From Spirochaetia bacterium (GTDB lineage Bacteria > Spirochaetota > Spirochaetia > CADAEX01), in the NCBI GenBank assembly GCA_017535435.1, contig JAFXTY010000060.1:654-64653 (forward strand): a stretch of DNA of 64,000 nt, written 5' to 3'. Each line of letters begins with the position of its first letter. Position 1 is the first letter of the stretch. Below are positions 1,953 through 62,671 of this stretch, in pieces. The notes under the pieces are model-generated. The model did not search any database. It was given only the letters and a program-made list of their open reading frames with translations, and had not been told where the DNA came from. The translations under genes were made by a program, and so were the position numbers.

Positions 1953-2531
1953 GTGTCAATCTCGACTGGTGCCTCTTTTTTTATTTCCGATGCCGATTTC
2001 TTCTCTTTTCCTTTCGGCAAGGGGGATGAGATCTCTCCCGAAGTGGTGGAGCAGCTGGAGAGGGGACACAAGCTTATCCTGTGCCGCTCCAAGGCCTTAT
2101 CCCTCCTGGATCTGGCAGAGCACTCTGCCTTCATGCTCCGCACCAAGCTGCGGCAGCGGGGATTCGAGCCCCCTGTGGTAGAGACTGTCATTGCACAGCT
2201 TAAGGAAAAGAACTTCCTTGATGACAGCCGTTTTGCCCGGCTGTGGGTTGCCTCTCGGCTCAGGAGGAATCCGGCAGGAAAGAGCGTGCTGGTGTCGGGA
2301 CTCAGGGCAAAAGGGGTGAGCGCTCGTGATGCGGAAGAGGCTGTGGCTGAGGTTCTGGACGAGGAGGCTCTTTTAGAAGGGGCCAGGAAAGTGTATAATA
2401 AGGCTGCCAGGAAAAAGAATTCCACGCCTGATAAGATAAAAGCGGCGATGCTGCAGAAGGGATATTCCCTCTCTGTCATAAGACTTATAACAAAGGAGGT
2501 CTTGGATGGAAAAGAAACGGAAGAGGATTAA
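1953..2531 (+). CDS. recX: RecX-like regulatory protein (start uncertain)
   Basis: Repeated three-helix RecX-like segments (…LRTKLRQRGFEPPVVETVIAQLKEKNFLDDSRFARLWVASRL…; …LRAKGVSARDAEEAVAEV…). Longest ATG ORF (1863) overlaps rpsI by 46 nt. In-frame GTG at 1953 preceded by AAAGGAGG (1934-1941) is a more plausible start. Confidence 0.55.
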   Translation: MSISTGASFFISDADFFSFPFGKGDEISPEVVEQLERGHKLILCRSKALSLLDLAEHSAFMLRTKLRQRGFEPPVVETVIAQLKEKNFLDDSRFARLWVASRLRRNPAGKSVLVSGLRAKGVSARDAEEAVAEVLDEEALLEGARKVYNKAARKKNSTPDKIKAAMLQKGYSLSVIRLITKEVLDGKETEED

Positions 2532-3093
2532 GATTTATTCTGCCCTTGAAGTGGCCAACATCTGCGGAGTGGTGAACCAGACTGCCATAAACTGGATAAA
2601 GAACGGTTCCCTCAAGGCCTTCACAACCCCTGGCGGCCAGTACCGTATCTATGCCGAGCATCTGGTGGACTTCCTGAAAGAACGTGGTATGAAAGTGCCT
2701 GCCGAGGTGCTTGAGAGCCTGAACGACGGCTTTGTGAACGAGAAGAAAATACTTATAATTGACACCGACAGAATCGCTATGAAAGAGATGAGGGACGCCC
2801 TCGCTGACTCCCTGCCTGGTTATTCCTTCCTTTCGGCAGCCACCAGCTTTGACGCCGGGAGGCTCCTGATGGCAGAAAAGCCGGAGATAATCATACTGAC
2901 CGAATCTTTCCCGGAGCTTACTGTGGAGAACCTGTACGACACCATATCAAGCCGGCGGGATTACGAGAAACCGGTCATCATCTTCATTGCCGACGAGAAC
3001 TCAACAGCAAGGGAGAGCAAGAAGGCAGACCTGTTTCTGCACCAGCCTGTGGAACTGGAAAAGCTGTTGGAGGTTATAAATGGTATTCACTGA
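2506..3093 (+). CDS. excisionase/MerR-type HTH domain fused to CheY-like receiver-like domain protein
   Basis: 195 aa. N-term IYSALEVANICGVVNQTAINWIKNGSLKAF..GGQYRIYAEHL resembles HTH_17/excisionase-family DNA-binding domains. C-terminal ~120 aa (KKILIIDTD…PEIIILT…PVIIFIAD) has a receiver-like alpha/beta pattern. Confidence 0.5.
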   Translation: MEKKRKRIKIYSALEVANICGVVNQTAINWIKNGSLKAFTTPGGQYRIYAEHLVDFLKERGMKVPAEVLESLNDGFVNEKKILIIDTDRIAMKEMRDALADSLPGYSFLSAATSFDAGRLLMAEKPEIIILTESFPELTVENLYDTISSRRDYEKPVIIFIADENSTARESKKADLFLHQPVELEKLLEVINGIH

Positions 3094-4387
3094 TATTATA
3101 GAAAAGAAAAAGAACGGCCAGAAGCTTACTAAGGAGGAACTGGATTTTTTCATCGACGGCTATGTTAAAGGTGTCATCCCTGATTATCAGGTGTCGGCCC
3201 TTTTGATGGCTATTGTCCTCAAGGGGATGGATGATGAGGAGACAGCGGCGCTGACCACTGCCATGCTTAATTCAGGACCCCGGATGGACCTTTCCGGTAT
3301 CAAGGGCTTCAAGGTGGACAAGCACTCCACCGGCGGCGTAGGGGATGACACCACACTGCTGGTTGCCCCTCTGGTTGCTGCCTGCGGATGCAAGGTGGCC
3401 AAGATGTCGGGCCGGGGTCTGGGCTTTACCGGGGGTACACTGGACAAGCTTGAGTCTATTCCCGGCTTCAATGTTTTCCTGGACAACGAGACCTTTGTGA
3501 AGAATGTCTCCAAGGTGGGACTTGCCATAATGGGGCAGACCCAGGATCTGGTTCCTGCCGACAAGAAGCTTTATGCCCTGAGGGATGTGACCGGCACTGT
3601 GCAGAGCCTGCCCCTCATTGCCTCCAGCATAATGAGCAAGAAGATTGCCATGGGCACCGATGCAGTTGTCCTGGATGTGAAAACCGGCAACGGAGCCCTT
3701 ATGCCAGCCTTAAAGGATTCTATAAAATTGGCCGATATAATGGTAAGAATCGGCAAGGCCACAGGTCTTAAGACTACTGCTGTGGTCACCGACATGAACC
3801 AGCCCCTGGGCAACTGCATCGGGAATGCTCTGTCGGTGGAAGAGGCTATCCATGTGCTCAGGGACAACATCGAGTGCGACATCAAGACCATCTCCCTGAC
3901 ATTGGCAGCAAAGATGCTTATTCTGGGTGGAATCTGCGAGTCGGACAGCGAGGCCATGATGATGCTGGAGGAGAAGCTTGCTTCCGGTCAGGCACTGGTG
4001 AAGCTGGCTCAGATGATAAAGACCCAGGGCGGCGACCCTGCTGTGGTGGACGACACCTCCATACTGCCACATGCCAAGGAGCAGATTCCTGTATGTGCCG
4101 ATTCTGCCGGGTATGTGTCGGAGATAATCACACGTGATGTGGGCTCTGCCGCATCCCTTTTAGGGGCAGGCCGGATGACCAAAGAGGATGTGATTGATCC
4201 AGCTGTGGGCATTGTGATCAAGAAACGGCTTGGGGATTATGTGGAGAAAGGCGAGGAGCTTGCCATCTTCCATGTGAACGATAAAAAGAATTTTGAGGAA
4301 GCAGTGGCTAAGTTCAAGAAAGCATATACAATTTCCAAGGATCAGCCTGACGAGCTTCCCCTTATCTATACTGTGATTGAGGATTAG
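3080..4387 (+). CDS. pdp: pyrimidine-nucleoside (thymidine) phosphorylase
   Basis: 435 aa; KHSTGGVGD and glycosyl-transferase family 3 signature regions; C-terminal PYNP domain; overlaps previous gene by 14 nt. Confidence 0.88.
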   Translation: MVFTDIIEKKKNGQKLTKEELDFFIDGYVKGVIPDYQVSALLMAIVLKGMDDEETAALTTAMLNSGPRMDLSGIKGFKVDKHSTGGVGDDTTLLVAPLVAACGCKVAKMSGRGLGFTGGTLDKLESIPGFNVFLDNETFVKNVSKVGLAIMGQTQDLVPADKKLYALRDVTGTVQSLPLIASSIMSKKIAMGTDAVVLDVKTGNGALMPALKDSIKLADIMVRIGKATGLKTTAVVTDMNQPLGNCIGNALSVEEAIHVLRDNIECDIKTISLTLAAKMLILGGICESDSEAMMMLEEKLASGQALVKLAQMIKTQGGDPAVVDDTSILPHAKEQIPVCADSAGYVSEIITRDVGSAASLLGAGRMTKEDVIDPAVGIVIKKRLGDYVEKGEELAIFHVNDKKNFEEAVAKFKKAYTISKDQPDELPLIYTVIED

Positions 4388-48424: not shown

Positions 48425-48445
48425 TTATTTTATTAGCAAGTATTT

Positions 48446-48474
48446 AGCCCCGGGACAACCCCGGGGCTTTTTTA
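48446..48474 (+). terminator. rho-independent terminator (AGCCCCGGG-ACAA-CCCGGGGCT + T6)
   Basis: Perfect 9-bp GC-rich stem and T-run 22 nt after dapA stop; marks end of the core operon and start of accessory segment. Confidence 0.85.
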
Positions 48475-48557
48475 TGCTTGCGTTTTTAAACGGTACAAAT
48501 GCTTACCAGAAATGAAGCTGTTAGTTTCAACATAAATTCATTTTCAGGAGGTGTTTT

Positions 48558-49226
48558 GTGCAAAACATCAATTTTTTACCATGGATTGGCAAAAATTATC
48601 AGACAGGCCTCGGTCCAAAAGGTCTTCGGGTGCTGGTTTTAGGCGAAAGTCACTATTGTTTCACCCTTGGACAGGGAAAATGTCCAGGATGTTCACTTAA
48701 GAATTGTATTGCCGCAGGTTTTACAAAGGAAGATTTCGAGCAGCAGACAATAGAGTACATCAAGGATATCCTCTATAACAACAAAGGATTGCCTTATCAA
48801 CAGACAGCATTAAGCTTTGAGAGGGCAATCGTGGGCAAGAAGAAACTGACTCAGGCAGAGCGGGAGGATTTTTGGAACAGTGTTATCTTCTATAATTATA
48901 TTCAGAAGTCGCTTCCAAAGCTTGATGGAAAAAGGACAGAGTTCACAGTAAATGACTTGGTTGGTTCAGATTCTGCATTTGATTTCATACTTGGTACATA
49001 TTTGCCTGATCTCATCATTGTCTGGGGGTTCAGGCTGTTCAAAATTTTGCCTCCCTGGGGTTCTGTCCGGTCAGAGCTGGAGCTACCATCGGGAGAAAAG
49101 ACGGATATCAGGATGTATTATGTCTGTGGGAAAAGCATTCCAGCCATAAAGGTGGCTCATCCAAGCTGTCCAAAGGGTCGTCAGTGGGAGTACTGGCATC
49201 AGTTCTACGATGTATTTTTGAATTGA
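48558..49226 (+). CDS. hypothetical Cys-containing protein (first gene of accessory segment)
   Basis: 222 aa; GTG start 6 nt after AGGAGG; Cys cluster CFTLGQGKCPGCSLKNC plus HPSCPKG; no family recognised. Confidence 0.5.
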   Translation: MQNINFLPWIGKNYQTGLGPKGLRVLVLGESHYCFTLGQGKCPGCSLKNCIAAGFTKEDFEQQTIEYIKDILYNNKGLPYQQTALSFERAIVGKKKLTQAEREDFWNSVIFYNYIQKSLPKLDGKRTEFTVNDLVGSDSAFDFILGTYLPDLIIVWGFRLFKILPPWGSVRSELELPSGEKTDIRMYYVCGKSIPAIKVAHPSCPKGRQWEYWHQFYDVFLN

Positions 49227-49245
49227 GATTCTGAAGTCTGCTTAC

Positions 49246-49306
49246 ATATCGGCAATATATAAATGGTATATAAAGTAAAAATACCACTTTATATTTTGCC
49301 GATATT
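49246..49306. promoter_or_regulatory. inverted repeat ATATCGGCAA(49246-55)/TTGCCGATAT(49297-306) flanking an AT-rich hairpin upstream of the Fic gene; candidate operator/promoter region
   Basis: 10-bp perfect reverse-complementary arms ~40 nt apart; TATATA-like -10 candidates between and after them. Confidence 0.35.
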
Positions 49307-49322
49307 GTGTTATTATATAGAC

Positions 49323-50192
49323 ATGGGAAAAGTAGATTATCTGCAGGTCGCCGATATAGCCAAAGCATGGGAAGTCTCAGACCGCAGTGTGCGGAACTAC
49401 TGTTGCCATGGGCGGGTCCCTGGGGCCATCATTGCCGGCAAGACTTGGCAGATACCTGCAGATACCCCTAAACCAAAGCGGCAGATTCGTCATTGCAGGA
49501 AAAAAGAGGAGACTGTTCTGGAGCAGCTTAAGAGGGAAAAGGATTCTGGGTTTAAGGGAGGGATGTACCATCGTATACAGATTGATTTTACTTATAACTC
49601 TAATCATATAGAGGGCTCCCGCCTGACTCCGGAGCAGACCCGCTATATCTTTGAGACCAACACCATCGGGATAACCGATAAAAGCGTCAATGTAAATGAT
49701 ATCATAGAGACAGTGAACCACTTTCGATGTGTAGATCTGGCTATCGAAGGGGCCAAGTCAAAGCTGACCGAAAGTTTTATCAAGCAGCTTCATTTTATAC
49801 TTAAGAACGGAACCTCCGATTCCCGGAAAAGCTGGTTCAAGGTTGGCGAATACAAGCTGCTGGAGAACGAGGTAGGTGGCATGGAGACAGCGGCCCCCGA
49901 AGATGTGAAGCCCCGGATGAAGGAACTCCTTGCCTGGTACAATGCAAAGAAGGTTGTGACCTTGGATGATATTCTTGATTTTCATGTACGGTTTGAGCGT
50001 ATCCATCCGTTCCAGGATGGAAACGGCAGGGTGGGGCGGCTGATTATGTTCAAGGAGTGTTTAAAAAACAACCTAAAACCGATTATAATAACCGAACAGC
50101 TCAAGTGGTTCTACTACCGCGGTCTCAAGGAGTGGTTCCATGAGCGTGGTTTTCTACGTGAGACTTGTCTGGAGGCAATGGAGGGGGTATAA
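49323..50192 (+). CDS. Fic-family protein (AMPylase-type) with N-terminal excisionase-type HTH, class II auto-inhibited
   Basis: Canonical Fic motif HPFQDGNGRVGR; upstream inhibitory-helix motif SNHIEG ([ST]xxxE[GN]) in same polypeptide; N-term MGKVDYLQVADIAKAWEVSDRSVRNYC HTH. Track ORF starts 60 nt earlier (49263) inside the promoter-like AT-rich region. Confidence 0.85.
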   Translation: MGKVDYLQVADIAKAWEVSDRSVRNYCCHGRVPGAIIAGKTWQIPADTPKPKRQIRHCRKKEETVLEQLKREKDSGFKGGMYHRIQIDFTYNSNHIEGSRLTPEQTRYIFETNTIGITDKSVNVNDIIETVNHFRCVDLAIEGAKSKLTESFIKQLHFILKNGTSDSRKSWFKVGEYKLLENEVGGMETAAPEDVKPRMKELLAWYNAKKVVTLDDILDFHVRFERIHPFQDGNGRVGRLIMFKECLKNNLKPIIITEQLKWFYYRGLKEWFHERGFLRETCLEAMEGV

Positions 50193-50201
50193 TTTATAGG
50201 T

Positions 50202-51815
50202 ATGAGTGATAAAATAATTATAAAAAAAGAAGATGAAGGGATACAAAGACTTGAAGTTAGTAACGAAGTTGTTGATAGGCTTAATAATATTTTTCGACGT
50301 GTAATTTGGAGAGACCCTGAAGGAAAAAACGAAGGTTATTTTGACATAAATAAAGATATATCTTTTCATAAAGATCTCTGTGATAAAATATTAGAGAAGA
50401 AAGTATCTGATTATAGTATTGTTGAGATTTTTTATTCTAAGAAAAAAGATGATTCGAAATATGAATACTTATTGCCACCTGAAAAAGAGTTTAAACAGAT
50501 TGATATTAATGAATTTAATACTTTTAAAAGCGAGCCTAAATATACTGAAGGTGGTTATTACTATCTCTTTAATAAATGTTTTATTGAAAAGAATTTTGTA
50601 AAGAATCTCGGAATACCGACAAATAAAGAAGATGGTTTCTTCCCATTATGGAAAGAGTATGAGCAATTTGAAAAGAAAGAATGGATTTGTCAATATCTCT
50701 ATAGGCAGGCACGTTTTAACTGGTATAATAGCGGAAATATAAATTTTTATTATAAACCTGCACAGCCATGGGTAGAATTTTATCATTTTTGCCAATTTTG
50801 CTATACATTAGTTAGAGCCGGGCTTGAAGTGAAAAAAGACAATAAAGGAAAACAGCTGAAAGAGTATAAAAACGATGGATATAAATATCTTATAGATAGA
50901 TATCTTGGGGAAAATATAAAAAAAATTAATAAAATTAAAAAAATAATATCAGATACAAAGGGAAAAACAAGTAAAAAGCAGGATTCATCTTTAGAAAAAC
51001 TAGAAAAAGAGTATTCTTATATAATGGGAAATATCGAATATGGAATAGAAGATGATTCAAAACCATTTCATATAAAAAGCCTTAAAGAAACAATTTTACA
51101 AATAAATTTCCATAAAGTCCATAATAGTTATCAAAAGTATAATTTTTTTAGTTTTGATTCTAATGATTGTGAATCTATTAAAAATATATATAAGAAATTA
51201 AATGACAAAGATTCTGAAGGTGATTACAATATTAGTTTAAAAAATTATTCTCAAATGTTTGATTATATTTTAAAGCATATATCACAATTGTCTAAAGAAG
51301 ACAAGGATACTATAACCTATATTTTTAAAAAAAAGAACTTTAAAAAAAATCCGGAATGCTATGATAAAGATACTGAGACAGAAGGCAATGATAAAGATAC
51401 TGAAGAATCTGAGAATAATGCTTCCCCAGAAAAACATATAATAAGTGGATCAGAAGGTGCTGATGAAATAATGTACAAGAAAGCCCAAGAAGAGAAAATA
51501 ATTAAGATTACTATAAAGATTTTTTGCAAACAATTCCCTTTCGATGAAAGATTTGTTCATTGGTTGAATGGATTGAATAGTTATGAGGAACTTGAATCCT
51601 TTCTTGTTGCGTTTATTCAGCTTAGTAAAAAGGGTAAAGTAAAGGAAGATCTTGCTGAGAAGAAAGTTAAGAATATGCTAATTGATAAATACAATGAAAT
51701 GGAAAATCTAAAAGAATACAGTGATGAAATAATCTCTCTTTTTGAGGAAAGGGTTAAGAAAGTTAAGGATTTGATTAAGAGGAAGTATAATGGAAAAAAT
51801 GACCTTTCTGAATGA
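50202..51815 (+). CDS. hypothetical protein, AT-rich cassette gene 1 (Lys/Asp/Glu-rich)
   Basis: 537 aa uninterrupted ORF in ~1/3-GC DNA; 9 nt after Fic stop; contains internal tandem DKDTE(T/E)EG repeat; no NTPase/nuclease motif found by eye. Confidence 0.55.
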   Translation: MSDKIIIKKEDEGIQRLEVSNEVVDRLNNIFRRVIWRDPEGKNEGYFDINKDISFHKDLCDKILEKKVSDYSIVEIFYSKKKDDSKYEYLLPPEKEFKQIDINEFNTFKSEPKYTEGGYYYLFNKCFIEKNFVKNLGIPTNKEDGFFPLWKEYEQFEKKEWICQYLYRQARFNWYNSGNINFYYKPAQPWVEFYHFCQFCYTLVRAGLEVKKDNKGKQLKEYKNDGYKYLIDRYLGENIKKINKIKKIISDTKGKTSKKQDSSLEKLEKEYSYIMGNIEYGIEDDSKPFHIKSLKETILQINFHKVHNSYQKYNFFSFDSNDCESIKNIYKKLNDKDSEGDYNISLKNYSQMFDYILKHISQLSKEDKDTITYIFKKKNFKKNPECYDKDTETEGNDKDTEESENNASPEKHIISGSEGADEIMYKKAQEEKIIKITIKIFCKQFPFDERFVHWLNGLNSYEELESFLVAFIQLSKKGKVKEDLAEKKVKNMLIDKYNEMENLKEYSDEIISLFEERVKKVKDLIKRKYNGKNDLSE

Positions 51816-52530
51816 GCTTATGAATGCTAATGGTATCTCTATTGCAGATATTTCAAGGTGTCATAATTGCAAGTTTTTTAAAAATTTAAAATACAATGAA
51901 ATATTTAAATGTAATATAAACAATGATAATTCTTTGGCAGTAACTGTTGCTGAGTTATTATATCCAGAAAAAGTGAAGTATATAAAGAATTATTTATTTA
52001 AAGATTCTAAAAATTGGCGAAAAGATTTGGTAAATTATGGCAAACAGTACAAAAAAATAATTATTACTGCAATGTTATTTGATACAGATTTCTATGTATA
52101 TGCCAGTAACTGGTGCTATCTTATGAGATTAGCCGCAGATCAGTATTATGCCAGACATAAAGAAAAAAAATTCTATGTGCTTGACCGGCCCGCTGAGGGG
52201 TATGGTGCAAAGATTTTTGATATTGGAGAGCCAATGGTGCTGGAGGGCACCGGAGTTCTGACTGTGGCTGGCAGATATATTCATGAAGATAATGAAGGGG
52301 ATCCCAGTAAAAAGATAATGAAGACTACCTTTAATTTTGAGTTTGGAAAGGAAGTATTGGAAGGGAAAGACGTTAGAATAACTATAGAGTGTGATGATAA
52401 TGTTAATAAGACTAGAGAAATAGTAATTGATTCCAGGTCTCTACAGGATGGAAAGAATAAAGTTCATAAAACTGTCGACCTAGATTTTGAGAATGGTTTT
52501 GATATTTCTGTAAAAAAAAATATCCTCTAG
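51790..52530 (+). CDS. hypothetical protein, AT-rich cassette gene 2
   Basis: 246 aa; overlaps gene 1 by 26 nt (translational coupling); Cys pair CHNCKFF…C; no family recognised. Confidence 0.5.
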   Translation: MEKMTFLNELMNANGISIADISRCHNCKFFKNLKYNEIFKCNINNDNSLAVTVAELLYPEKVKYIKNYLFKDSKNWRKDLVNYGKQYKKIIITAMLFDTDFYVYASNWCYLMRLAADQYYARHKEKKFYVLDRPAEGYGAKIFDIGEPMVLEGTGVLTVAGRYIHEDNEGDPSKKIMKTTFNFEFGKEVLEGKDVRITIECDDNVNKTREIVIDSRSLQDGKNKVHKTVDLDFENGFDISVKKNIL

Positions 52531-52576
52531 AGAAATTTCTTTCCCCATAAAATCATTATATGGGTAGGAGGAAAAA

Positions 52577-54553
52577 ATGGAAATACTGATTCCAATTGTA
52601 GAAAAAACTGTAGAAGGAAAAACTGAAGTATCATTTCATAGCATAACTAATGTTTACCAGAGAGAGCTTGCCCGAGGTGGAGTAATCGCTGTCAACGAAT
52701 TTGATGAGGAAACAAAGTTTGATGAAGAAACGAAAGGAATATTTGGACAAGATTTGAACCCCTGTCAGGTCATGGTCGAGCCAAGACCCGCTACAGGCAA
52801 GGAAATATCTGCCAATGACATTGTGCTCTTACCAGCAATACCGCTTGGGATATTGCTGGCAATTGAAAAGATGATTAATTATAGATTCTTCAAAGAATAC
52901 TATGACATACTGATTGTTGCAGGCTATGTCGAGAATGGCATATTGAAAGCCATCAATGATAGTCAGCATATTTATGAAGAAGCAAGTAATAATAAGTATG
53001 TTGCACGTTTAATCTCAAATAAGAAGCGAGTTCAATTCCTATATGTGGCCAATGATGATATCGAGATTGTGACAAACAATAATGAAACTCACTGCTGGGA
53101 TGGTACTTATCCTATTTCTGTTTTTCGATTTGCCCCTGATATTCCATATGCCAATATTCTTGAAGAACTATTCACAGTCGTAGGTAATAAAATTGTATAT
53201 TATCCGAATTGGGTTGAGAACGATGGTCTGCCATGGGGACGGAAAGAAAACGATTTTTCAAGAGAAGATATAAAGTATAGAGATGCTTCATATATGTTCA
53301 CATATAAAGATGATGAACTTAAGAGTGTTAGAAAAATTAACAGTGCTGGATTGCCCTATGCCTATTCAGGTCCAATAGATAATCCTGTGTTTCAAGAGTT
53401 TTATTACCATGATTCTGATAAATCTGATAAACCAAATATAACAGTTCTCTACAAGACAAAATCTGGGAATACTGTATATAGAAAAGAGATTAAGAGAGAG
53501 AGTAATAATTCTTATAAGGTGACCTTCTATAACTGCTTGGATGCAGGTCCTTTCTTCTTTAACAGTGATTTTATGGAATATAAGCCTGAAACAATTGACA
53601 GTGTTTGCTCTTTGCCAGATGCATTCATAGGAAAAGAGTGGCTAGTAGAATGTAATCAGCATGGCTTCGTGACTAGCAAGCTTGCTACAAGAAGTAATAA
53701 TGAAATATATGGTATGGAATATTCCTATGATGAAGACGATAAAGCAGGCAACATTTGTAAGGAATATTTTCTTGGTCAAGATGGCAAGCCAATTACTGTC
53801 AATGGGATTGTTGGATATGAAATGCAGTATGACAATAATAATAATATGACAGAGCGGAAGGCATTGGATGCAGAATATAAAAATCTGAATAGAGCTAAAT
53901 TTGAATATGATGAGAACAACAGACAGGTTCGCTGCGAGCTTTATGATAGTCAAGGTAAGTGTCATGTGGTAAAGACAAACTGGAAAAACTTTCCCCGGAC
54001 AATAGAGACAGATTATGGTCATAGCATCTTAAGAAGAAAGTATGATTGGCTTGGATACTGTGTATCCCTGGCAGTTCTTGACGACAAGAATAAACCGACT
54101 TGTGGTAGAGTAGGTAATGCTCTATGCTCAGAGATTCGAAGAGTGTTTAATGAGGGAACTCTGCCAATTGAAATCTCATACCGAGATGAAGAACAAGAGC
54201 TTGCTTGTCGGGATGATGGAGTAGCTGTCATAAAGACCAAGTATGATCCTGATAAAAATATAGCAAAAGAGACTTATCATGGAATATATGGAAATGCAAC
54301 AGAAGATGAACGTGGAATTGCTCAGATAAAGCAATATTATGAATATTATAAAGATGGAAAAATTGGAAGGTTTATATTATTATATAGATTGTCAGAGCTT
54401 GATGATTTATATAAAGATGAAATCCAATTGGGTGAGATTAAGGATGGATTAGCTTGGTTTATGTCAAATCCTGTGAAAGTTCCCAATTTGGCCATAGATA
54501 TAAATGCATATCTTTATAACTTACCCCAAATACCGTTGCCTCTCCATTTTTAA
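52577..54553 (+). CDS. hypothetical large protein, AT-rich cassette gene 3
   Basis: 658 aa; AGGAGG RBS; Asn/Tyr/Asp-rich, no Walker A or known catalytic signature seen. Confidence 0.55.
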   Translation: MEILIPIVEKTVEGKTEVSFHSITNVYQRELARGGVIAVNEFDEETKFDEETKGIFGQDLNPCQVMVEPRPATGKEISANDIVLLPAIPLGILLAIEKMINYRFFKEYYDILIVAGYVENGILKAINDSQHIYEEASNNKYVARLISNKKRVQFLYVANDDIEIVTNNNETHCWDGTYPISVFRFAPDIPYANILEELFTVVGNKIVYYPNWVENDGLPWGRKENDFSREDIKYRDASYMFTYKDDELKSVRKINSAGLPYAYSGPIDNPVFQEFYYHDSDKSDKPNITVLYKTKSGNTVYRKEIKRESNNSYKVTFYNCLDAGPFFFNSDFMEYKPETIDSVCSLPDAFIGKEWLVECNQHGFVTSKLATRSNNEIYGMEYSYDEDDKAGNICKEYFLGQDGKPITVNGIVGYEMQYDNNNNMTERKALDAEYKNLNRAKFEYDENNRQVRCELYDSQGKCHVVKTNWKNFPRTIETDYGHSILRRKYDWLGYCVSLAVLDDKNKPTCGRVGNALCSEIRRVFNEGTLPIEISYRDEEQELACRDDGVAVIKTKYDPDKNIAKETYHGIYGNATEDERGIAQIKQYYEYYKDGKIGRFILLYRLSELDDLYKDEIQLGEIKDGLAWFMSNPVKVPNLAIDINAYLYNLPQIPLPLHF

Positions 54554-54555
54554 TC

Positions 54556-54598
54556 TGAGCGGGACTGAGTAATCAGCCTCGCTTTTTTTATTTTTTTT
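54556..54598 (+). terminator. probable terminator (imperfect hairpin + T7ATTTTTTTT)
   Basis: AGCGG…CC(T)CGCT stem with internal CTGA/TCAG hairpin followed by long T-run immediately after cassette gene 3. Confidence 0.45.
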
Positions 54599-54701
54599 CT
54601 AAAATTTTAATTTTTGTTACCCCAAATATCTATATGAACTATTGAGAGGGCAAAATGGCGTGTTTCGCCATCCCCTCATACATATTAAGTGGAGGAAAAC
54701 T

Positions 54702-55550
54702 ATGAAGAAAGCTTTCATTGCTGTGGACGGTATCTTTGGATTTGACCTGTTCCAGCATGGTAAGGAGCAGTACCACAAGGTACTTGATTTCGGTGGACTC
54801 ATTCAGGATGTCTGCCAGCGTCTGGGGACAAAAGGTGACTGCCAGGTCTTGGTTCCAAAGGTCTTAAGGCGGTGCTACATAGGGGCAACAACTAAGTGCT
54901 GGAATCCAGTCAGGAGAGAGTACGAGACTGCGCTGAGAAATGCCAAGTTCGTAATGCCCGGCAGGCCGCTTTGCAGCAACGGCAAGGAAAAGGGGATAGA
55001 CACTTTGCTCTTCTCTGAAGTCATAGAGGCTGCTCGGTATGACTATTTTGATTACCTAGTGCTACTGACTGGAGATCTGGATCACATCACACTGGTTCAA
55101 GATCTCAAAGAGATGGGGAAGGAAACCATACTGCTCACAGGGAAGGTATGTGGCGAGGATGGTTTGGAGAAGACTGGTTACTCAAAGGAACTTGAGAACA
55201 ACTGTATGGAAACAATAGATATATTTAGCCTTATTGGCGAACCTAAGGTATTTAAAGATGTCCCTGCCATTCCTGCTGTCGCAGCAGATAAGAAGCAGAT
55301 TCCGCAGGTCGTACAGGCAATTGTGGAAATAATGGCAGAGAAATCAAAGGAGGTGGGGAAAACAGCGGTCTTTGCCTACCAGGATATGGTTGAGGCACGA
55401 TTAGTCCAAAACGGCACACAGCTGGGTATGCCACTAGGCGAGTATCTGGTTTCCTTCCCGACAATTTTCAAGGTTGGGTGTGTCTGGTTCTCCCAGAGGA
55501 AGACAGTGTCACTTATTAACACCACTAATACTCTTAAGGAGGTAATATGA
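54702..55550 (+). CDS. NYN (LabA-like, PIN-fold) nuclease domain protein with C-terminal OST-HTH/LOTUS-like domain
   Basis: Start at MKKAF after GGAGGA (track ORF begins 54642). NYN motifs FIAVDG, GKEKGIDTLLFSEVIE, DYLVLLTGDLDHITLVQDLKEMGKETILL; C-terminal ~90 aa helical LOTUS-like segment. Confidence 0.65.
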   Translation: MKKAFIAVDGIFGFDLFQHGKEQYHKVLDFGGLIQDVCQRLGTKGDCQVLVPKVLRRCYIGATTKCWNPVRREYETALRNAKFVMPGRPLCSNGKEKGIDTLLFSEVIEAARYDYFDYLVLLTGDLDHITLVQDLKEMGKETILLTGKVCGEDGLEKTGYSKELENNCMETIDIFSLIGEPKVFKDVPAIPAVAADKKQIPQVVQAIVEIMAEKSKEVGKTAVFAYQDMVEARLVQNGTQLGMPLGEYLVSFPTIFKVGCVWFSQRKTVSLINTTNTLKEVI

Positions 55551-55614
55551 TCACTTTAGCAATCATAGCGTTTATTATCTCAAAACTGTGAGAAGCGAAG
55601 GAAAAATAATAATA

Positions 55615-55803
55615 ATGACTTTTGAAGAAATTAAGAAGCAGATTGAAATAGGCAATCTTGAGTGGAAAGAACTGCTTACTATGAGGGCTTTATTCCCAAA
55701 GTATCGGCAGGATTTAAGACACGAAGTAATTAAGAGGAACATCCCCTGGTGGATGCCATGTAAGGATTGGATTGCGAAAAGAATTGAGAAAAAGATCAAC
55801 TAA
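55615..55803 (+). CDS. small hypothetical protein (62 aa from MTFEEIKK…)
   Basis: Short ORF between NYN and DUF1232 genes; Trp/Lys-rich; weak RBS; could be non-coding. Confidence 0.3.
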   Translation: MTFEEIKKQIEIGNLEWKELLTMRALFPKYRQDLRHEVIKRNIPWWMPCKDWIAKRIEKKIN

Positions 55804-55813
55804 GGAGTAAAAA

Positions 55814-56215
55814 ATGAAATATAACTATGACGACAAAGACCTCAGCAGAGAGTTTGAGGCAAGAAAATCAACTTCTACAAAAGATGTGGATAATGTGCTG
55901 AAGAACGAGGAGAAAATCAAGAGGATGGCGAAGAAGGGAGCGCTGGCCAAGTTCTTTGGAGACATCGTACTGTTTTTCCAGCTGCTGGGTGATTATACCA
56001 GAGGAAGATACCGGAAGGTTCCTTTGCGGACGATTGCCGCTATTGTAGGCGCATTGGCCTATGTCTTGAGCCCTATAGACATTATCCCAGACTTATTTCC
56101 GGTAATCGGTTATGTAGACGATGCCGGAGTGATGGCCCTCTGCCTGAAGCTTGTTCAGTCAGATATCGACCATTATCGTACATGGAGAGAGGGTAACAAC
56201 AAGAAAGCTGCGTAA
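55814..56215 (+). CDS. DUF1232 (YkvA-like) membrane protein
   Basis: 133 aa; signature …PIDIIPDLFPVIGYVDDAGV… typical of DUF1232. Confidence 0.65.
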   Translation: MKYNYDDKDLSREFEARKSTSTKDVDNVLKNEEKIKRMAKKGALAKFFGDIVLFFQLLGDYTRGRYRKVPLRTIAAIVGALAYVLSPIDIIPDLFPVIGYVDDAGVMALCLKLVQSDIDHYRTWREGNNKKAA

Positions 56216-56374
56216 TTATCAATGGGGCGCCCTGCTTTTTTTGCAGGGCGATATTTAGAGTCCAACATTGAACCCCCAGAAAATCATATAAAAAGTAGAG
56301 AAGATTAAAAGGGCAGCCTGACAAGGGCAATTTTGAATTGAATAGAGCGCCATAGGGCTACCAAAGGAGGACAG

Positions 56375-57364
56375 ATGAAAAAGAGAAAATTAGTTAGGGG
56401 ATTAGTCGAATTTGTACTGGTCATGGCATTCTTGTTCACAGTTGTTATCTGCATTGGGGACAGGATAAGATTGTCTGGCCACAAGGAGCCGGTGTTCGAA
56501 AACGCAAAAGTGGTACCCGAAGCGAACTATAATTTGAATGCGGAGACACAAATGGCTATGGCTACTGCAAAGGAAGTTGCATATCAGTATGCTTGCGACG
56601 AGTTGGACAAATGGATAGCAGAGATAATGAAAGAGACAGACCGTTTCGCTAATGAATATTTTGAATATGGAGCAGAGAACAGCCGGGGGCTTTCAGCAGT
56701 CTACCATGATGTAATGCATAAGTTGATTAGTTCGCATAAGACAGCAAACGAAGCATTGATGGAAGACTTGGAGCAGCAGATTTCATGTCATCTTTTTAAC
56801 AAAGAGGCAGCACAGGCAAGAATTACAAACATAACAAACGAAACTGTAGCGGTCTACATGAAGACTTTTGGCCGGGAATTAGCCAAGATTCAGGAGAAGC
56901 ACAGTATACCTCAGCCAGTGTGGGACAAGCATATTTACCATCTCTGCTCCATAACCGCAGGCTTTGACTCAAGAAGTGTTCCTATGACAACTAAAGTTGT
57001 TGTCTCAACAGCAGCCGGTATTACTCTTAAGGTTGCAACTCCACTTGTTGCCAGAGTTGGACAGCATGTAGGAGAGAAGTTTGCTGCCAAAGCAGGGACA
57101 AAATTTGTTGCTAAAAACTTTGGGAAGTGGATTCCCGGACTTGGAACGGTTATTGCAGCAACAGTAATAGGCTGGGATTTGATAGATTACAAGCTGACTG
57201 CAGAGAAGAACAAACGTGCTCTTAATGCAGGGTTTGATTTGTATTTTCAGGAGATGAAAACCGAACTTCTTGGACCGACTGACGACAGCATCATGGGGTC
57301 TATTACCCTGTTGGAAAACAACATTAAGTCTAAGCTTGCTTTAAGTAAGGAGGACACAATATGA
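56375..57364 (+). CDS. uncharacterised single-pass membrane protein, paralog A
   Basis: 329 aa; N-in TM (VEFVLVMAFLFTVVICIG), long helical domain, C-terminal Gly/Ala-rich hydrophobic segment (…GLGTVIAATVIGWDLIDY…) and conserved tail QEMKTELLGPTDDSIMGSI. Confidence 0.6.
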   Translation: MKKRKLVRGLVEFVLVMAFLFTVVICIGDRIRLSGHKEPVFENAKVVPEANYNLNAETQMAMATAKEVAYQYACDELDKWIAEIMKETDRFANEYFEYGAENSRGLSAVYHDVMHKLISSHKTANEALMEDLEQQISCHLFNKEAAQARITNITNETVAVYMKTFGRELAKIQEKHSIPQPVWDKHIYHLCSITAGFDSRSVPMTTKVVVSTAAGITLKVATPLVARVGQHVGEKFAAKAGTKFVAKNFGKWIPGLGTVIAATVIGWDLIDYKLTAEKNKRALNAGFDLYFQEMKTELLGPTDDSIMGSITLLENNIKSKLALSKEDTI

Positions 57365-58344
57365 AAAATTATATCAGGATTATATGCTATCTGATTGCTG
57401 CTGTATTTGTTATAACAGTTGTTACCATATTTGGCTATTCCAACTCTTCAGAGCCGGAGGCCCCGCATTTTGAAAGCAGACAGATAGAAGAGAAGGAGTT
57501 TGTCTTTGACCACAGGATAGACATGGAAATACTTGATTCCTTGGACTTGGCTGAACAGAAGGCCAAAGAATATGCAGCCGGACGGCTTGATCGTTGGATT
57601 TCTGGGTTGATGGTGCGTACTGACAGTTTCCTTGACGAATATTTTAACCTGCTCAATGTCAAAAAGAGAGAGGTATCTGCAGCATGGCATACCGTCAGTC
57701 ATAAAATCAGCAAGAGTTCACCTTCGGCAGAAGATGTCATTATGGATGACCTGATGGCAAGATTTGAAGAGAAGGTTCTTAACCGGAATGATGCACAGCG
57801 GATGCTGGAGGATATAGGTAACAACGCTATAATGGTTTTTATTGACTTATTTGAACATGGCCTTGATTTGATTAAGGAAAAGTATAGTGTACCTGAACAG
57901 GACTGGACGAAACATATTTCCAGTTTGTGTGGCTATGCGGCAGACTTTGAGGCACGGCGGGTATCTATTATAGCCAAGATCTCAATAGCGAGCTCAGCTG
58001 TACTTGGAACGGAAGTTGCCTATAGAATTGTGTCCTCCGTTGTTAGTAAGCTTGGAAAGAATCTTGCAATTAAAGCTGGAACAAAGGCAGCCGGTTCAAC
58101 AGGAGCAAAGGCCGTAAGCAGTGCTGTCCCGATTGTTGGTTTTGCTATCACAGCAGCTGTAATAGGCTGGGATATCTATGACTCTATCACCACTTCAGAA
58201 CGGAATAAACGGGATATGCGAGCTGGAGTTGAACAATATTTCCAAGAAATGAAGGCATATCTTCTTGGCCCAGCCCAGGACAGCATCATAGGCTCTATTG
58301 TTTTATGGGAAAAAGAAGTACGGAACAGGATTCAGACACGATAA
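57361..58344 (+). CDS. uncharacterised single-pass membrane protein, paralog B
   Basis: 327 aa; ATGA overlap with paralog A; alignable along its length (…AVIGWDIYD…, QEMKAYLLGPAQDSIIGSI; KYSVPEQDWTKHISSLCGYAADFEARRV vs KHSIPQPVWDKHIYHLCSITAGFDSRSV). Confidence 0.6.
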   Translation: MKNYIRIICYLIAAVFVITVVTIFGYSNSSEPEAPHFESRQIEEKEFVFDHRIDMEILDSLDLAEQKAKEYAAGRLDRWISGLMVRTDSFLDEYFNLLNVKKREVSAAWHTVSHKISKSSPSAEDVIMDDLMARFEEKVLNRNDAQRMLEDIGNNAIMVFIDLFEHGLDLIKEKYSVPEQDWTKHISSLCGYAADFEARRVSIIAKISIASSAVLGTEVAYRIVSSVVSKLGKNLAIKAGTKAAGSTGAKAVSSAVPIVGFAITAAVIGWDIYDSITTSERNKRDMRAGVEQYFQEMKAYLLGPAQDSIIGSIVLWEKEVRNRIQTR

Positions 58345-58355
58345 GGAGGAAAGGA

Positions 58356-58589
58356 ATGACATTAAACTATTTTATGAACTTGCTTGAGGACCATGGATGG
58401 GATGTTGAGAGTGACCCTCTTTGTTTTACTAATGGAAATGCCGAGATTCACATTGGGTTTAATGAGTATGACGAAGAATATATTGAAGATGGTGCTCTTC
58501 TTTGTCATGTCACATGGATCAAGTTTACAAGGCGAAGTATGACAATTTTTTGGGATGATGGCGATAGTTGGAGATATAACTATTGGTGA
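58356..58589 (+). CDS. small acidic Trp-rich hypothetical protein (77 aa)
   Basis: Start MTLNYFMN… 6 nt after GGAGGAAAGGA; 12 nt downstream of paralog B; acidic, aromatic-rich. Confidence 0.4.
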   Translation: MTLNYFMNLLEDHGWDVESDPLCFTNGNAEIHIGFNEYDEEYIEDGALLCHVTWIKFTRRSMTIFWDDGDSWRYNYW

Positions 58590-58701
58590 AAGAAAAATAG
58601 GGTATTTTAAGCCCTATAAGAGGGGGATAGAATTATTGAGGGCGACGTCCAAACCTGCAGGGGAGTTGCCATATTTGAACCATAGAGAACCTCCTTACTT
58701 T

Positions 58702-58735
58702 GGGGGACCGAGCAATCGGTCTCCCCTTTTTATTT
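58702..58735 (+). terminator. rho-independent terminator (GGGGGACCGA-GCAA-TCGGTCTCCCC + T-run)
   Basis: GC-rich stem with one bulge, followed by TTTTTATTTT; separates membrane-pair operon from patatin-LRAT unit. Confidence 0.6.
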
Positions 58736-58799
58736 TCAGAGTTGGGTGGAATAATCTTCGTGAATACTGTAATCTCTTATATGGGAGAAAGCTAATACT

Positions 58800-59879
58800 A
58801 TGTTTTTCAAGCGTAAGATAGGGTTAGTTCTGGCAGGGGGCGGCGGCAAAGGAGCGTACGAGCTCGGTGTCTGGAAGTACCTGTCAGAGATAGGCCTTAT
58901 CAAGAAAATATCTGTTATCTCAGGCTCTTCGGTAGGGGCGCTGAACGCCATCCTGCTGAACCTATGTGATTTTGATACTGCTGTAGACATATGGACTACC
59001 CAGCTTGAGAGCAATATCCTTGACTTCAAATCCACCACAAAGCGGTCCGGGGCTATCTTCAGCAGGGAAGGGCTCTATCGGATTATGGAGCAGCTGGATT
59101 TCAGCAAGCTGCCTGCACTTAAGAAAAAGATATATGCAACCTGCCTCAATACTGATACTAAAAAACCTGAGAGCTTCTGTCTGAACAATTATGACGAAGA
59201 GACTGTGAAGCAGCTCCTGTGTGCCACCAGCGCCATTCCCCTTGTGTTCCAGGGTGAGAAGATTTTCGGAAACAACTATATTGACGGTGGTTGGGGAGAT
59301 GAGGTCCCTATCCAGCCTCTGCTGGATGAGGGGTGCACCGATGCAATCGTGGTGAACCTTAAGCGTAGTTATCATGTGGATTATTCCGGCCTTGGGATCA
59401 ATACAGTTGTGATTCATCCAACTGTCAACCTGGGGGACAACTGGTTTGGTATTCTTGACTTCTCTGCCAAAGGGGCACACAGACGGATGAAGCTGGGCTA
59501 TGATGACTGCAGAAGAAGGTTTGCACCACTCCTTAAGACATTGCGGGGACACTTGAGCTTCAGCCTCAGCGGTGTCCGGGCCAAGAAGATAAATGCCATG
59601 ACTGACGAGGAAATCCTTCAGAGGACCTTGGAGGTGATATCTGCCCATCCTGAGCATCTTAATGAAATACAGGGGTATTTCAACATCGATTTCCTGACGG
59701 CCGGTGGCGAGGTGTTCTGGAAAGAGCTGGCAGAATATCATGGCTGGCGGTTCCAGGAGAACAATATCACCAGACATATAAGACTGATTGATCCCACCAA
59801 TTTCCGCCGGGCCTGGGGCAGGAGACGGCAGCTGGTGGATTACTGCCGCTCTTTTTTAATTGGACAGTTGGCGAAATAG
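58800..59879 (+). CDS. cytoplasmic patatin-like phospholipase
   Basis: 359 aa, no signal peptide; oxyanion LVLAGGGGKGAYELGV, nucleophile GSSVGALNA (GxSxG), catalytic IDGGWGDEV (DGG). Confidence 0.85.
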   Translation: MFFKRKIGLVLAGGGGKGAYELGVWKYLSEIGLIKKISVISGSSVGALNAILLNLCDFDTAVDIWTTQLESNILDFKSTTKRSGAIFSREGLYRIMEQLDFSKLPALKKKIYATCLNTDTKKPESFCLNNYDEETVKQLLCATSAIPLVFQGEKIFGNNYIDGGWGDEVPIQPLLDEGCTDAIVVNLKRSYHVDYSGLGINTVVIHPTVNLGDNWFGILDFSAKGAHRRMKLGYDDCRRRFAPLLKTLRGHLSFSLSGVRAKKINAMTDEEILQRTLEVISAHPEHLNEIQGYFNIDFLTAGGEVFWKELAEYHGWRFQENNITRHIRLIDPTNFRRAWGRRRQLVDYCRSFLIGQLAK

Positions 59880-62033: not shown

Positions 62034-62671
62034 AAATCCGGGACCTTCTTTCCACCAGGTTCAGATATGTCTACAACAACTGGTGTCTATATATAATCAT
62101 AGCCAATGTGGCAGTATTTCTGCTCACCTCTATGAACAGCCGCCTTGCCTCATACTTGGCCATGAACCCAATCAATGTGGCGCATCATCACATGTACTGG
62201 CAGTTTGTCACCTATATGTTTGTCCACGGAAGCTTAAGCCATCTCTTCTTCAACATGCTGGGTCTATACTTCTTCGGAATAGCTGTGGAGCAGTCCATCG
62301 GCAGCAAAGAATTTCTCCTGTTCTACCTTTTGTGCGGAACCCTTGCCGGTATCTTCTCCTATTTTGTCTATGTGAACACAGGCTATTTCCGTATATTCCT
62401 GCTGGGAGCCTCGGGCGCTCTTTTTGCCGTGCTTCTGGCCTATGCAGTGATATTCCCTGATTCAACTGTGTTCCTTTTCGGCATTGTCCCGATGTCGGCA
62501 CGGATGCTTATTCTGGGCTACACCGTGCTTGAGATTGTCTACCAGATGACTGGCTACAATGCTGGGGTTGCCCATCTGACCCACCTGGGTGGCTTTGCGT
62601 TTGCCTATCTTTACTTTGTGATCCGGTTCAGAGTTAATCCTGCAGACCGGCTTTTCGGCAGGAGACGTTGA
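62030..62671 (+). CDS. rhomboid-family intramembrane serine protease
   Basis: 213 aa; 6 TM; catalytic GASGALFAVL (GxSG) and His in AHLTHLGGFAFAY; ATGA overlap with upstream gene. Confidence 0.85.
   Translation: MKIRDLLSTRFRYVYNNWCLYIIIANVAVFLLTSMNSRLASYLAMNPINVAHHHMYWQFVTYMFVHGSLSHLFFNMLGLYFFGIAVEQSIGSKEFLLFYLLCGTLAGIFSYFVYVNTGYFRIFLLGASGALFAVLLAYAVIFPDSTVFLFGIVPMSARMLILGYTVLEIVYQMTGYNAGVAHLTHLGGFAFAYLYFVIRFRVNPADRLFGRRR

Follow-up and report, generated by a model that had tools for sequence, protein, structure and literature searches.

In a 64,000-nucleotide stretch of a Spirochaetia bacterium genome (assembly GCA_017535435.1, contig JAFXTY010000060.1, positions 654 to 64,653 of the forward strand; the whole stretch is referred to here as the window), our analysis points to a one-gene module made up of an operator, a promoter and a gene for a Fic enzyme that bears a domain of the helix-turn-helix (HTH) type. 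We assign a probability of roughly 0.7 to the reading that this HTH-Fic protein is an autorepressed and self-inhibited enzyme. The protein is very likely an active or activatable Fic enzyme, and autorepression through the inverted repeat in front of the gene is likely, though held with a little less assurance. The coding sequence occupies 49323..50192 on the plus strand (289 amino acids plus stop), with its start placed according to the N-termini of homologues; ATG 49323 lies inside a longer open reading frame (ORF) on the same strand, 49263..50192.

Membership of the Fic/Fido superfamily is defined by the motif HxFx(D/E)GNGRxxR inside a Fic fold. The complete catalytic motif HPFQDGNGRVGR was located at residues 228-239 (50004..50039, plus strand), and the protein matches the Pfam Fic family (PF02661) with an E-value of 1.9e-18 and 67.5 bits against a cut-off of 24. 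The best solved relative by sequence is CdFic of C. difficile (4x2e; E 8e-35, residues 76-259), followed by BtFic (3cuc) and then animal FICD. The AlphaFold model, which has a mean predicted local distance difference test score (pLDDT) of 78.7, superposes on all three proteins and best on CdFic (Foldseek template-modelling score 0.75, normalised to the target). In the classification of Engel et al., class II Fic proteins have the inhibitory motif [ST]xxxE[GN] within their own chain, on a helix that precedes the Fic core. The window protein has SNHIEG at residues 93-98 (49599..49616, plus strand), which aligns with the motifs of CdFic, BtFic and FICD; it matches SNKIEG of CdFic column for column, and SNHLEG of BtFic falls in the same place. 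The CdFic mutant structures 4x2c and 4x2d read ANKIAG there, the S and the E of the motif being replaced by alanine. Among 46 relatives, S93, E97 and G98 are invariant, as are all catalytic residues. Both the full catalytic motif and the class II assignment, which an earlier reading of the DNA (hereafter the original prediction) had proposed from the letters alone, are borne out by these comparisons.

The N-terminus is predicted to form an excisionase- or HTH_17-type winged HTH (residues 6-45; 49338..49457, plus strand) with the recognition helix SDRSVRNYC. HTH_17 was found in 44 of 46 close relatives at E <= 0.01 (best 1.8e-07), a profile of 21 diverse N-termini matches the excisionase of mycobacteriophage Pukovnik (4j2n; E 7.5e-04), and among the PHROG HTH families number 10045 ('HTH DNA binding protein') matches residues 5-46 (E 1.1e-06). 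In the AlphaFold model, strands at residues 6-8, 36-38 and 41-45 and helices at 9-16 and 20-28 give the beta-alpha-alpha-beta-beta topology of a strand, a helix-turn-helix and a two-stranded wing, with pLDDT values of 79-91 over residues 1-50. All of this agrees with the excisionase-like HTH that had been predicted. The likeness claimed for the HTH of the protein encoded at 2506-3093 stands only in part: the two domains are of the common HTH_17 class, but a specific kinship was ruled out (BLASTP E 19, hhalign probability 9%). The 2506-3093 product is a 195-amino-acid protein with an N-terminal HTH_17 (33.6 bits) and a response-regulator receiver domain, an unusual domain order. Between the HTH and the Fic part of the window protein lies a basic linker of low model confidence, DTPKPKRQIRHCRKKEE (residues 46-64; 49458..49514, plus strand), in which K50, P51, R53, R56 and H57 are invariant among close relatives; a role of this linker in DNA contact we can only infer.

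Directly upstream of the gene, the perfect 10-nucleotide (nt) inverted repeat of the original prediction was located as ATATCGGCAA at 49246-49255 and TTGCCGATAT at 49296-49305, and a repeat finder extends its arms to 18 nt with 94% complementarity. The left arm, ATATCGGCAATATATAAA (49246..49263), contains the half-site ATCGGCAA at 49248-49255, and the right arm, TTTATATTTTGCCGATAT (49288..49305), contains the half-site TTGCCGAT at 49296-49303, so that the two half-sites stand 48 base pairs (bp) apart from start to start. The 24-nt spacer between the arms (49264..49287; like the arms, assigned to no strand) holds an inner hairpin, TGGTAT...ATACCA, that is specific to the window. A promoter scan independently picked out TTTATA, then TTTTGCCGAT in the spacer, then TGtTATTAT. 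These elements constitute a sigma-70-type promoter (49288..49316, plus strand) with a -35 box TTTATA at 49288-49293, a 17-nt spacer, a TG at 49308-49309 and a -10 box TATTAT at 49311-49316. Both the -35 box and the promoter spacer share bases with the right arm; the two half-sites, at 49248 and 49296, flank the -35 box and extend into that spacer, and the inverted repeat overlaps the gene's own promoter. The exact pair of ATCGGCAA and TTGCCGAT with a spacing of 40-50 bp occurs once in the 64-kb window. The lack of any other exact operator pair in the window speaks against a regulon, and in 771 kb of related loci only two exact pairs lie outside the upstream regions of fic.

Some weaker resemblances to the operator were also seen in the window. 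Pairs with two mismatches and a 46-bp spacing occur inside coding regions at 3683-3736 and 62297-62350, and a half-site with one mismatch, TCGCCGATA, lies within fic itself at 49348-49356, 52 bp 3' of the right half-site; it is not conserved in two related Treponema contigs, L085 and L086. These matches are probably due to chance.

The position of the promoter bears on the choice of start codon. The product was aligned with 19 relatives of 67-90% identity, most of which begin at the position of M21 of the long frame (MGKVDY...). The 20-codon N-terminal extension appears only in some gene calls of very close relatives, and the matching stretch contains stop codons in more distant loci; because of these stop codons, we take the apparent conservation of the extension to be that of regulatory DNA. 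ATG 49263 was ruled out as the start by the homologue N-termini, and its extra 20 codons would span both operator and promoter. The shorter start had been preferred in the original prediction as well, and homologue N-termini and promoter geometry both favour it. The -10 hexamer ends at 49316, 6 nt 5' of ATG 49323, so a leaderless messenger RNA (mRNA) is predicted, with transcription expected to begin at about 49323, the A of the ATG. No Shine-Dalgarno sequence was found ahead of ATG 49323. The same gap of 6-7 nt between -10 box and ATG is seen in loci L001, L002, L003, L044, L085 and L086, and most Firmicute loci have a leader of 15-83 nt, commonly with GGAGG. For the Spirochaete branch, a leaderless mRNA is the best prediction.

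The conservation of the operator was followed through relatives of the gene, of which a scan with one genome per species returned more than 587. The best 80 of these, with 55-66% identity to the query, belong to Treponema and further members of the Spirochaetes, numerous Clostridia, Erysipelotrichales, Negativicutes, Anaeroplasma and many Bacteroidota, and include one contig binned as Bifidobacterium. In the 76 usable loci, which represent at least four phyla, 123 copies of the 8-mer TTGCCGAT or of its complement fall within the 160 nt around the start codon (10.1 per kb) and 66 in the remaining 696 kb (0.095 per kb), an approximately 107-fold enrichment upstream of the gene. An exact copy is present upstream in 67 of the 76 loci. 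From the start of ATCGGCAA to the start of the next TTGCCGAT, 65 of 74 pairs measure 42-48 bp, most often 45, and the extended consensus of the half-site is the 12-bp sequence TTTTGCCGATAA. The placement relative to the promoter is likewise fixed: 44 of 71 loci have the right half-site separated by exactly 7 nt from a TAnnnT -10 box that follows it and by 2 nt from a -35-like hexamer that precedes it, with a 17-nt promoter spacer. The -10 hexamers of these loci are TATAAT 20 times and TATACT 17 times, and the -35 hexamer is TTGATA 15 times. Close relatives of the window show the same layout of -35, half-site, 7 nt and -10. The Bacteroidota have their half-sites rearranged into a tight palindrome, TTGCCGATATCGGCAA, just 5' of a TAnnTTTG box, with a third half-site, TTGCCGATA, a few bases ahead of the ATG.

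Some changes in the half-sites come in matched form. Both arms are altered in L019 (TGACGGCAA / TTGCCGTCA), L044 (TTCGGCAA / TTGCCGAA) and L056 (ATCGGAAA / TTCCGAT). In L056, L069 and L087 the recognition helix reads (E/D)RMVRNYC in place of ERSVRNYC, a change of serine to methionine at residue 22 (S22M), and only these loci have T for G at position 3 of the half-site (TTTCCGAT, TTCCGAT, TTCCAAT); some 130 loci with Ser or Thr at residue 22 keep the G. The variant operators lie at about 4915-4975 of L056, 3680-3745 of L069 and 330-375 of L087, the last of which was the one further S22M locus that a metagenome scan added. This covariation of residue 22 with half-site position 3 is suggestive rather than statistical. 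The conserved half-sites, their fixed spacing, their position inside the promoter and the matching changes of half-site and recognition helix together strongly support the proposal, made in the original prediction, that the protein would regulate its own gene through the repeat.

The operator was also used as the starting point, in a scan of viral contigs with the pattern TATCGGCAAAA-N29-37-TTTTGCCGATA. Ten loci were returned, and in seven of them an HTH-Fic gene starts 36-50 nt from the match. The other three (L171 1940-2060, also L174 and L175) represent a single context in one species, an orphaned operator beside a large ORF. There, three half-sites with normal spacing and no fic gene are followed by a terminator-like hairpin and then by the large ORF, which from its translation is taken to be nrdD (anaerobic ribonucleotide reductase). 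The orphan operator is probably the relic of a deleted module.

The gene appears to stand alone. No conserved partner gene (antitoxin, integrase or downstream effector) was found around fic in 78 loci: among 567 flanking ORFs no cluster is tied to a fixed position, the largest neighbour cluster comprises 10 of the 78 loci at varying positions, and the 146 immediate neighbour ORFs match 208 Pfam families with at most four ORFs per family. Nor was any similarity among the loci detected in the 300 nt downstream of fic. The absence of a conserved neighbour or downstream sequence leads us to regard fic as a solitary module. A separate adjacent antitoxin gene, which characterises type II toxin-antitoxin systems of the class I Fic kind, was not found as a conserved neighbour in the 78 loci. 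In the related contigs L085 and L086 the gene order is dapB, dapA, fic and patatin. Their homology to the window starts exactly at 49246/49247, the left half-site, stops at 50177 and resumes at 58799, from which it follows that 48435-49245 and 50178-58798 are insertions in the window.

Three other explanations of the repeat and its gene were weighed. According to one, which we consider very improbable, the repeat is no protein-binding operator but an RNA hairpin that terminates the upstream gene for a 222-amino-acid protein (48558-49226). The whole repeat does fold as RNA into a long hairpin (-27.4 kcal/mol, z -4.7) beginning 20 nt past the stop codon of that gene, and its inner part is unusually self-complementary (z -4.05). 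Yet the stem is A+T-rich and lacks a T-run, where an intrinsic terminator would have a G+C-rich stem followed by one, and a terminator scan reported the dapA terminator (48446-48468) only, with nothing at 49246-49320. Across the family, self-complementarity is lacking in the inner 34-40 nt (median z -0.09 over 63 loci, only four of them below -2); in L085 and L086 a proper dapA terminator precedes the repeat and no gene intervenes, and in Bacteroidetes the half-sites are arranged differently. In the window alone, the repeat may have a secondary role as terminator. Terminator scan and family folding thus give no support to a terminator or a conserved RNA hairpin. The hairpin that the original prediction had placed between the arms exists in the window but is not a feature of the family; what the family conserves is two protein-sized half-sites set a fixed distance apart.

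It is likewise distinctly improbable that the repeat is read by some other factor, either as a recombination or mobility site for which the HTH would serve as directionality factor, or as the target of a host regulator. The excisionase class of the HTH would fit such a site, as would the spread of the module across phyla, its position at insertion junctions and the homology with relatives, which sets in exactly at the left half-site. However, neither an integrase nor any other partner is conserved in the vicinity, and the base-exact position of the right half-site between -35 and -10 in the 44 loci is typical of a repressor site; moreover, the half-site covaries with the recognition helix of the adjacent protein. 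Improbable, to a lesser degree, is the view that HTH-Fic is mainly a transcription factor whose Fic domain senses or sets its state, and whose promoter also drives the downstream genes of the AT-rich block (50202 onward), which would make the protein a switch for a variable island, like the regulators that head some defence islands. The next gene indeed starts 10 nt past the fic stop on the same strand, with no terminator up to 50400; related strains hold different cargo at the same junction, a patatin gene overlapping the fic stop; and CbFic2, another HTH-Fic protein, switches its activity on DNA binding (PMC10628234). Over the 78 loci, however, the downstream gene is not conserved and is often on the opposite strand or hundreds of bases away, and control of cargo therefore cannot be the general function of the family. 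Separate expression of the island could come from promoter-like sites at 50060-50089 and 50165-50193, inside the 3' end of fic, and the invariant catalytic residues argue for a working enzyme over a mere sensor.

The preferred reading, an autorepressed and self-inhibited enzyme, would operate as follows. The sigma-70-type promoter would yield a leaderless mRNA starting at or next to ATG 49323. The HTH-Fic protein, probably acting as a dimer like CdFic, would bind the inverted half-sites ATCGGCAA (49248) and TTGCCGAT (49296) through its N-terminal winged HTH. Since one half-site is situated 5' of the -35 box and the other within the -35/-10 spacer, occupancy would exclude RNA polymerase, and the blocked promoter would keep a potentially growth-arresting Fic enzyme at a low, self-limited level. 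As a second, intramolecular brake, E97 would restrain AMP transfer; de-AMPylation may be a further activity that it supports, as the examples of FICD, EfFic and CbFic2 suggest. The most likely role is that of a growth-arrest or abortive-infection effector, with a phage-defence or toxin-antitoxin-like function in one polypeptide; a defence role in particular is tentative, and we would sooner bet against it than for it. Residues 63-286 match the PADLOC model PDLC04836 (PDC-S04) with an E-value of 9e-103, which places the protein in that group. Like the fic gene of the window with its lack of a conserved neighbour, PDC-S04 is a single-gene system, but the model spans the Fic part only and not the HTH or the operator.

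Several points weigh against this interpretation. The HTH_17 (PF12728) match of the 289-residue protein itself reaches 17.5 bits (E 0.005) against a gathering score of 27. A separation of 45 bp between half-site centres corresponds to about 150 Å on straight DNA, which is long for a small dimer, so that DNA bending, use of the flexible basic linker of 20 residues or a higher oligomer would be needed. The three S22M loci may represent one or two evolutionary events. In the whole Treponema clade the C-terminus of fic is 12-20 residues short of the family consensus, and this shortening, due to downstream insertions, could impair function. CdFic is reported to auto-AMPylate despite its inhibitory helix (PMC10628234); by analogy, the term 'self-inhibited' may fail here, and the replacement of E by G as an assay of inhibition, suggested in the original prediction, may be uninformative. 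PDC-S04 is a phage-defence candidate by genomic association that was never validated, and in one study a PDC-S04 gene gave no defence in its native host (bioRxiv 10.1101/2024.12.20.629700). Finally, while the sequence features with their conservation, spacing and overlap of the promoter are direct observations, what we say of DNA binding, reporter-level repression, transcription start and enzyme activity in the HTH-Fic family, and of target and role, is deduced from sequence.

A more far-reaching version of the model is possible but unlikely, namely a 'three-in-one' conflict module in which toxin, antitoxin helix and repressor reside in one polypeptide and the operator DNA gates the enzyme. 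The operator-bound dimer would be inactive or a de-AMPylase, and release from DNA, through phage attack or auto-AMPylation, would both de-repress the gene and unleash AMPylation, the outcome being a self-amplifying abortive-infection switch. On this account the module would have spread over at least four phyla while keeping its operator code, and its 3' end would be a recurrent insertion point for cargo.

Among known systems, the closest functional parallel comes from Yersinia pseudotuberculosis, whose CccR (YPK_0951) is both a class II Fic toxin and a transcription factor and regulates its own gene (PMC9755527). It shuts off its own promoter by binding AGATAATCAT-N26-ATGATAATCT near the -35 and -10 boxes, for which it must be a dimer (PMC9755527). 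Like the window protein, CccR unites an HTH in one polypeptide with a Fic domain of class II (motif SARIEG) and has a widely spaced inverted repeat at its own promoter, with autorepression being predicted from sequence in the case of the window protein. The differences are considerable. The HTH of CccR is C-terminal and of another family, whereas that of the window protein is an N-terminal HTH_17; the operator sequences are unlike, and the spacing in the window family is wider, with 34-40 nt between cores; the Fic domain of CccR belongs to the SoFic branch and that of the window protein to the CdFic branch; and CccR is secreted by the type VI secretion system and AMPylates FtsZ, with nothing similar indicated for the window protein. 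The CccR structure 7xux matches the window protein weakly (E 9e-06) over the Fic core, and the C-terminal HTH after a SoFic-like Fic domain that defines the CccR family is absent from it. The best reading, by analogy, is that the window protein would work like CccR yet stand outside the CccR family.

CdFic (4x2e, 4x2c, 4x2d) shares the position of the inhibitory motif and the catalytic motif with the window protein, but it has 235 residues and no HTH, and no operator has been described for it. SoFic (Shewanella and E. coli) and CbFic2 (Coxiella) are also class II Fic proteins with an attached DNA-binding HTH; SoFic is reported to bring about abortive infection by AMPylation (PMC12249575). Their winged HTH, however, is C-terminal, and they bear an additional N-terminal extension of the DUF4172 type. 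SoFic chains match the window protein weakly (E 0.003), and the PADLOC model of SoFic, a validated defence protein, does so at 2e-22 as against 9e-103 for PDC-S04. Moreover, SoFic has a small downstream antitoxin, AS1, whereas the window family is without a conserved downstream ORF. The class I pairs FicT/FicA and VbhT/VbhA and the 'mobile mystery protein A/B' pair resemble the window protein in having a potentially toxic Fic domain, an [ST]xxxE[GN] helix and HTH-mediated control, but keep the inhibitory helix or the HTH on a separate protein, where the window protein has both fused to the enzyme; the NCBIfam model mob_myst_B gives a weak match (E 2e-07), far below its cut-off.

A full-text literature search for HTH_17 together with Fic turned up a single paper, a draft-genome report, and with it no description of the N-terminal HTH_17-Fic architecture or of the operator; this negative result does not prove that none exists. 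The protein classes are already known, and the regulatory principle has one experimental precedent in CccR; the N-terminal HTH_17 architecture, the cross-phylum operator with its fixed geometry and the candidate recognition code are new. Fic enzymes are widespread, and to our knowledge only a minority of the bacterial ones have a known target or trigger. The HTH-Fic family is very large, with at least 8,000 protein clusters and more than 587 genomic loci. Gut and rumen bacteria commonly have it, under no annotation other than 'Fic family protein' or the defence candidate PDC-S04. For such proteins, the present analysis offers a regulatory model built on half-sites of 12 bp (TTTTGCCGATAA) at a fixed spacing of some 45 bp and on a base-exact promoter position, as well as a candidate recognition code that pairs Ser22 with G and Met22 with T at position 3. 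If true, the model would provide a second, independently built example of the CccR principle, a toxic Fic enzyme that polices its own promoter, and a portable repressor-operator pair for sigma-70-type and Bacteroidetes-type promoters.

In the window, an insertion lies on either side of the gene. The insertion at 48435-49245 contains the gene for the 222-amino-acid ORFan, which sits between the dapA terminator and the fic operator and is absent from L085 and L086; no match to it was found in Pfam, NCBIfam, PADLOC, PHROGs or PDB. The insertion at 50178-58798 measures 8.6 kb, has 26-43% G+C against about 50% around it, and holds same-strand ORFan genes encoding 537, 246, 658, 302, 62, 133, 329 and 327 amino acids; for these too the five databases yielded only hints, namely a weak NYN match, DUF1232 and weak matches to PADLOC PDC-S29 on the last two genes. 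This AT-rich insertion adjoins the fic stop and has replaced the last codons of the gene: the final five (M, E, G, V and stop; 50178..50192, plus strand) are not homologous to those of the relatives and mark its left junction. At the 3' end of fic (about 50160-50192 in the window), three different endings follow the conserved TCL of the C-terminus, namely MEGV in the window, QLCSSS(G/V)K in relatives with the patatin junction and the longer consensus ...QDAMKxxLDYFGIKYE, a diversity that points to more than one recombination or insertion event there. No direct repeats were found at the island junctions. What lies downstream of dapA has the appearance of a variable island of the defence type.

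A gene for a patatin-like phospholipase with weak matches to the PADLOC 'Effector phospholipase' lies at 58800-59879 of the window and at 3598-4677 of L085. In the related strains it overlaps the fic stop, and the genes after it are of the DUF3990 and HTH_3 kinds. Plasmid or phage carriage was rejected as the cause of the spread of HTH-Fic: plasmid matches are mostly without the HTH, and there are four phage records only, so the full module is mainly chromosomal. Of the plasmid records, 74 of 82 are Helicobacter plasmids. Small cryptic plasmids of Helicobacter pylori (3-18 kb; H2-H15) carry HTH-less Fic relatives of 43-48% identity beside the replication gene.

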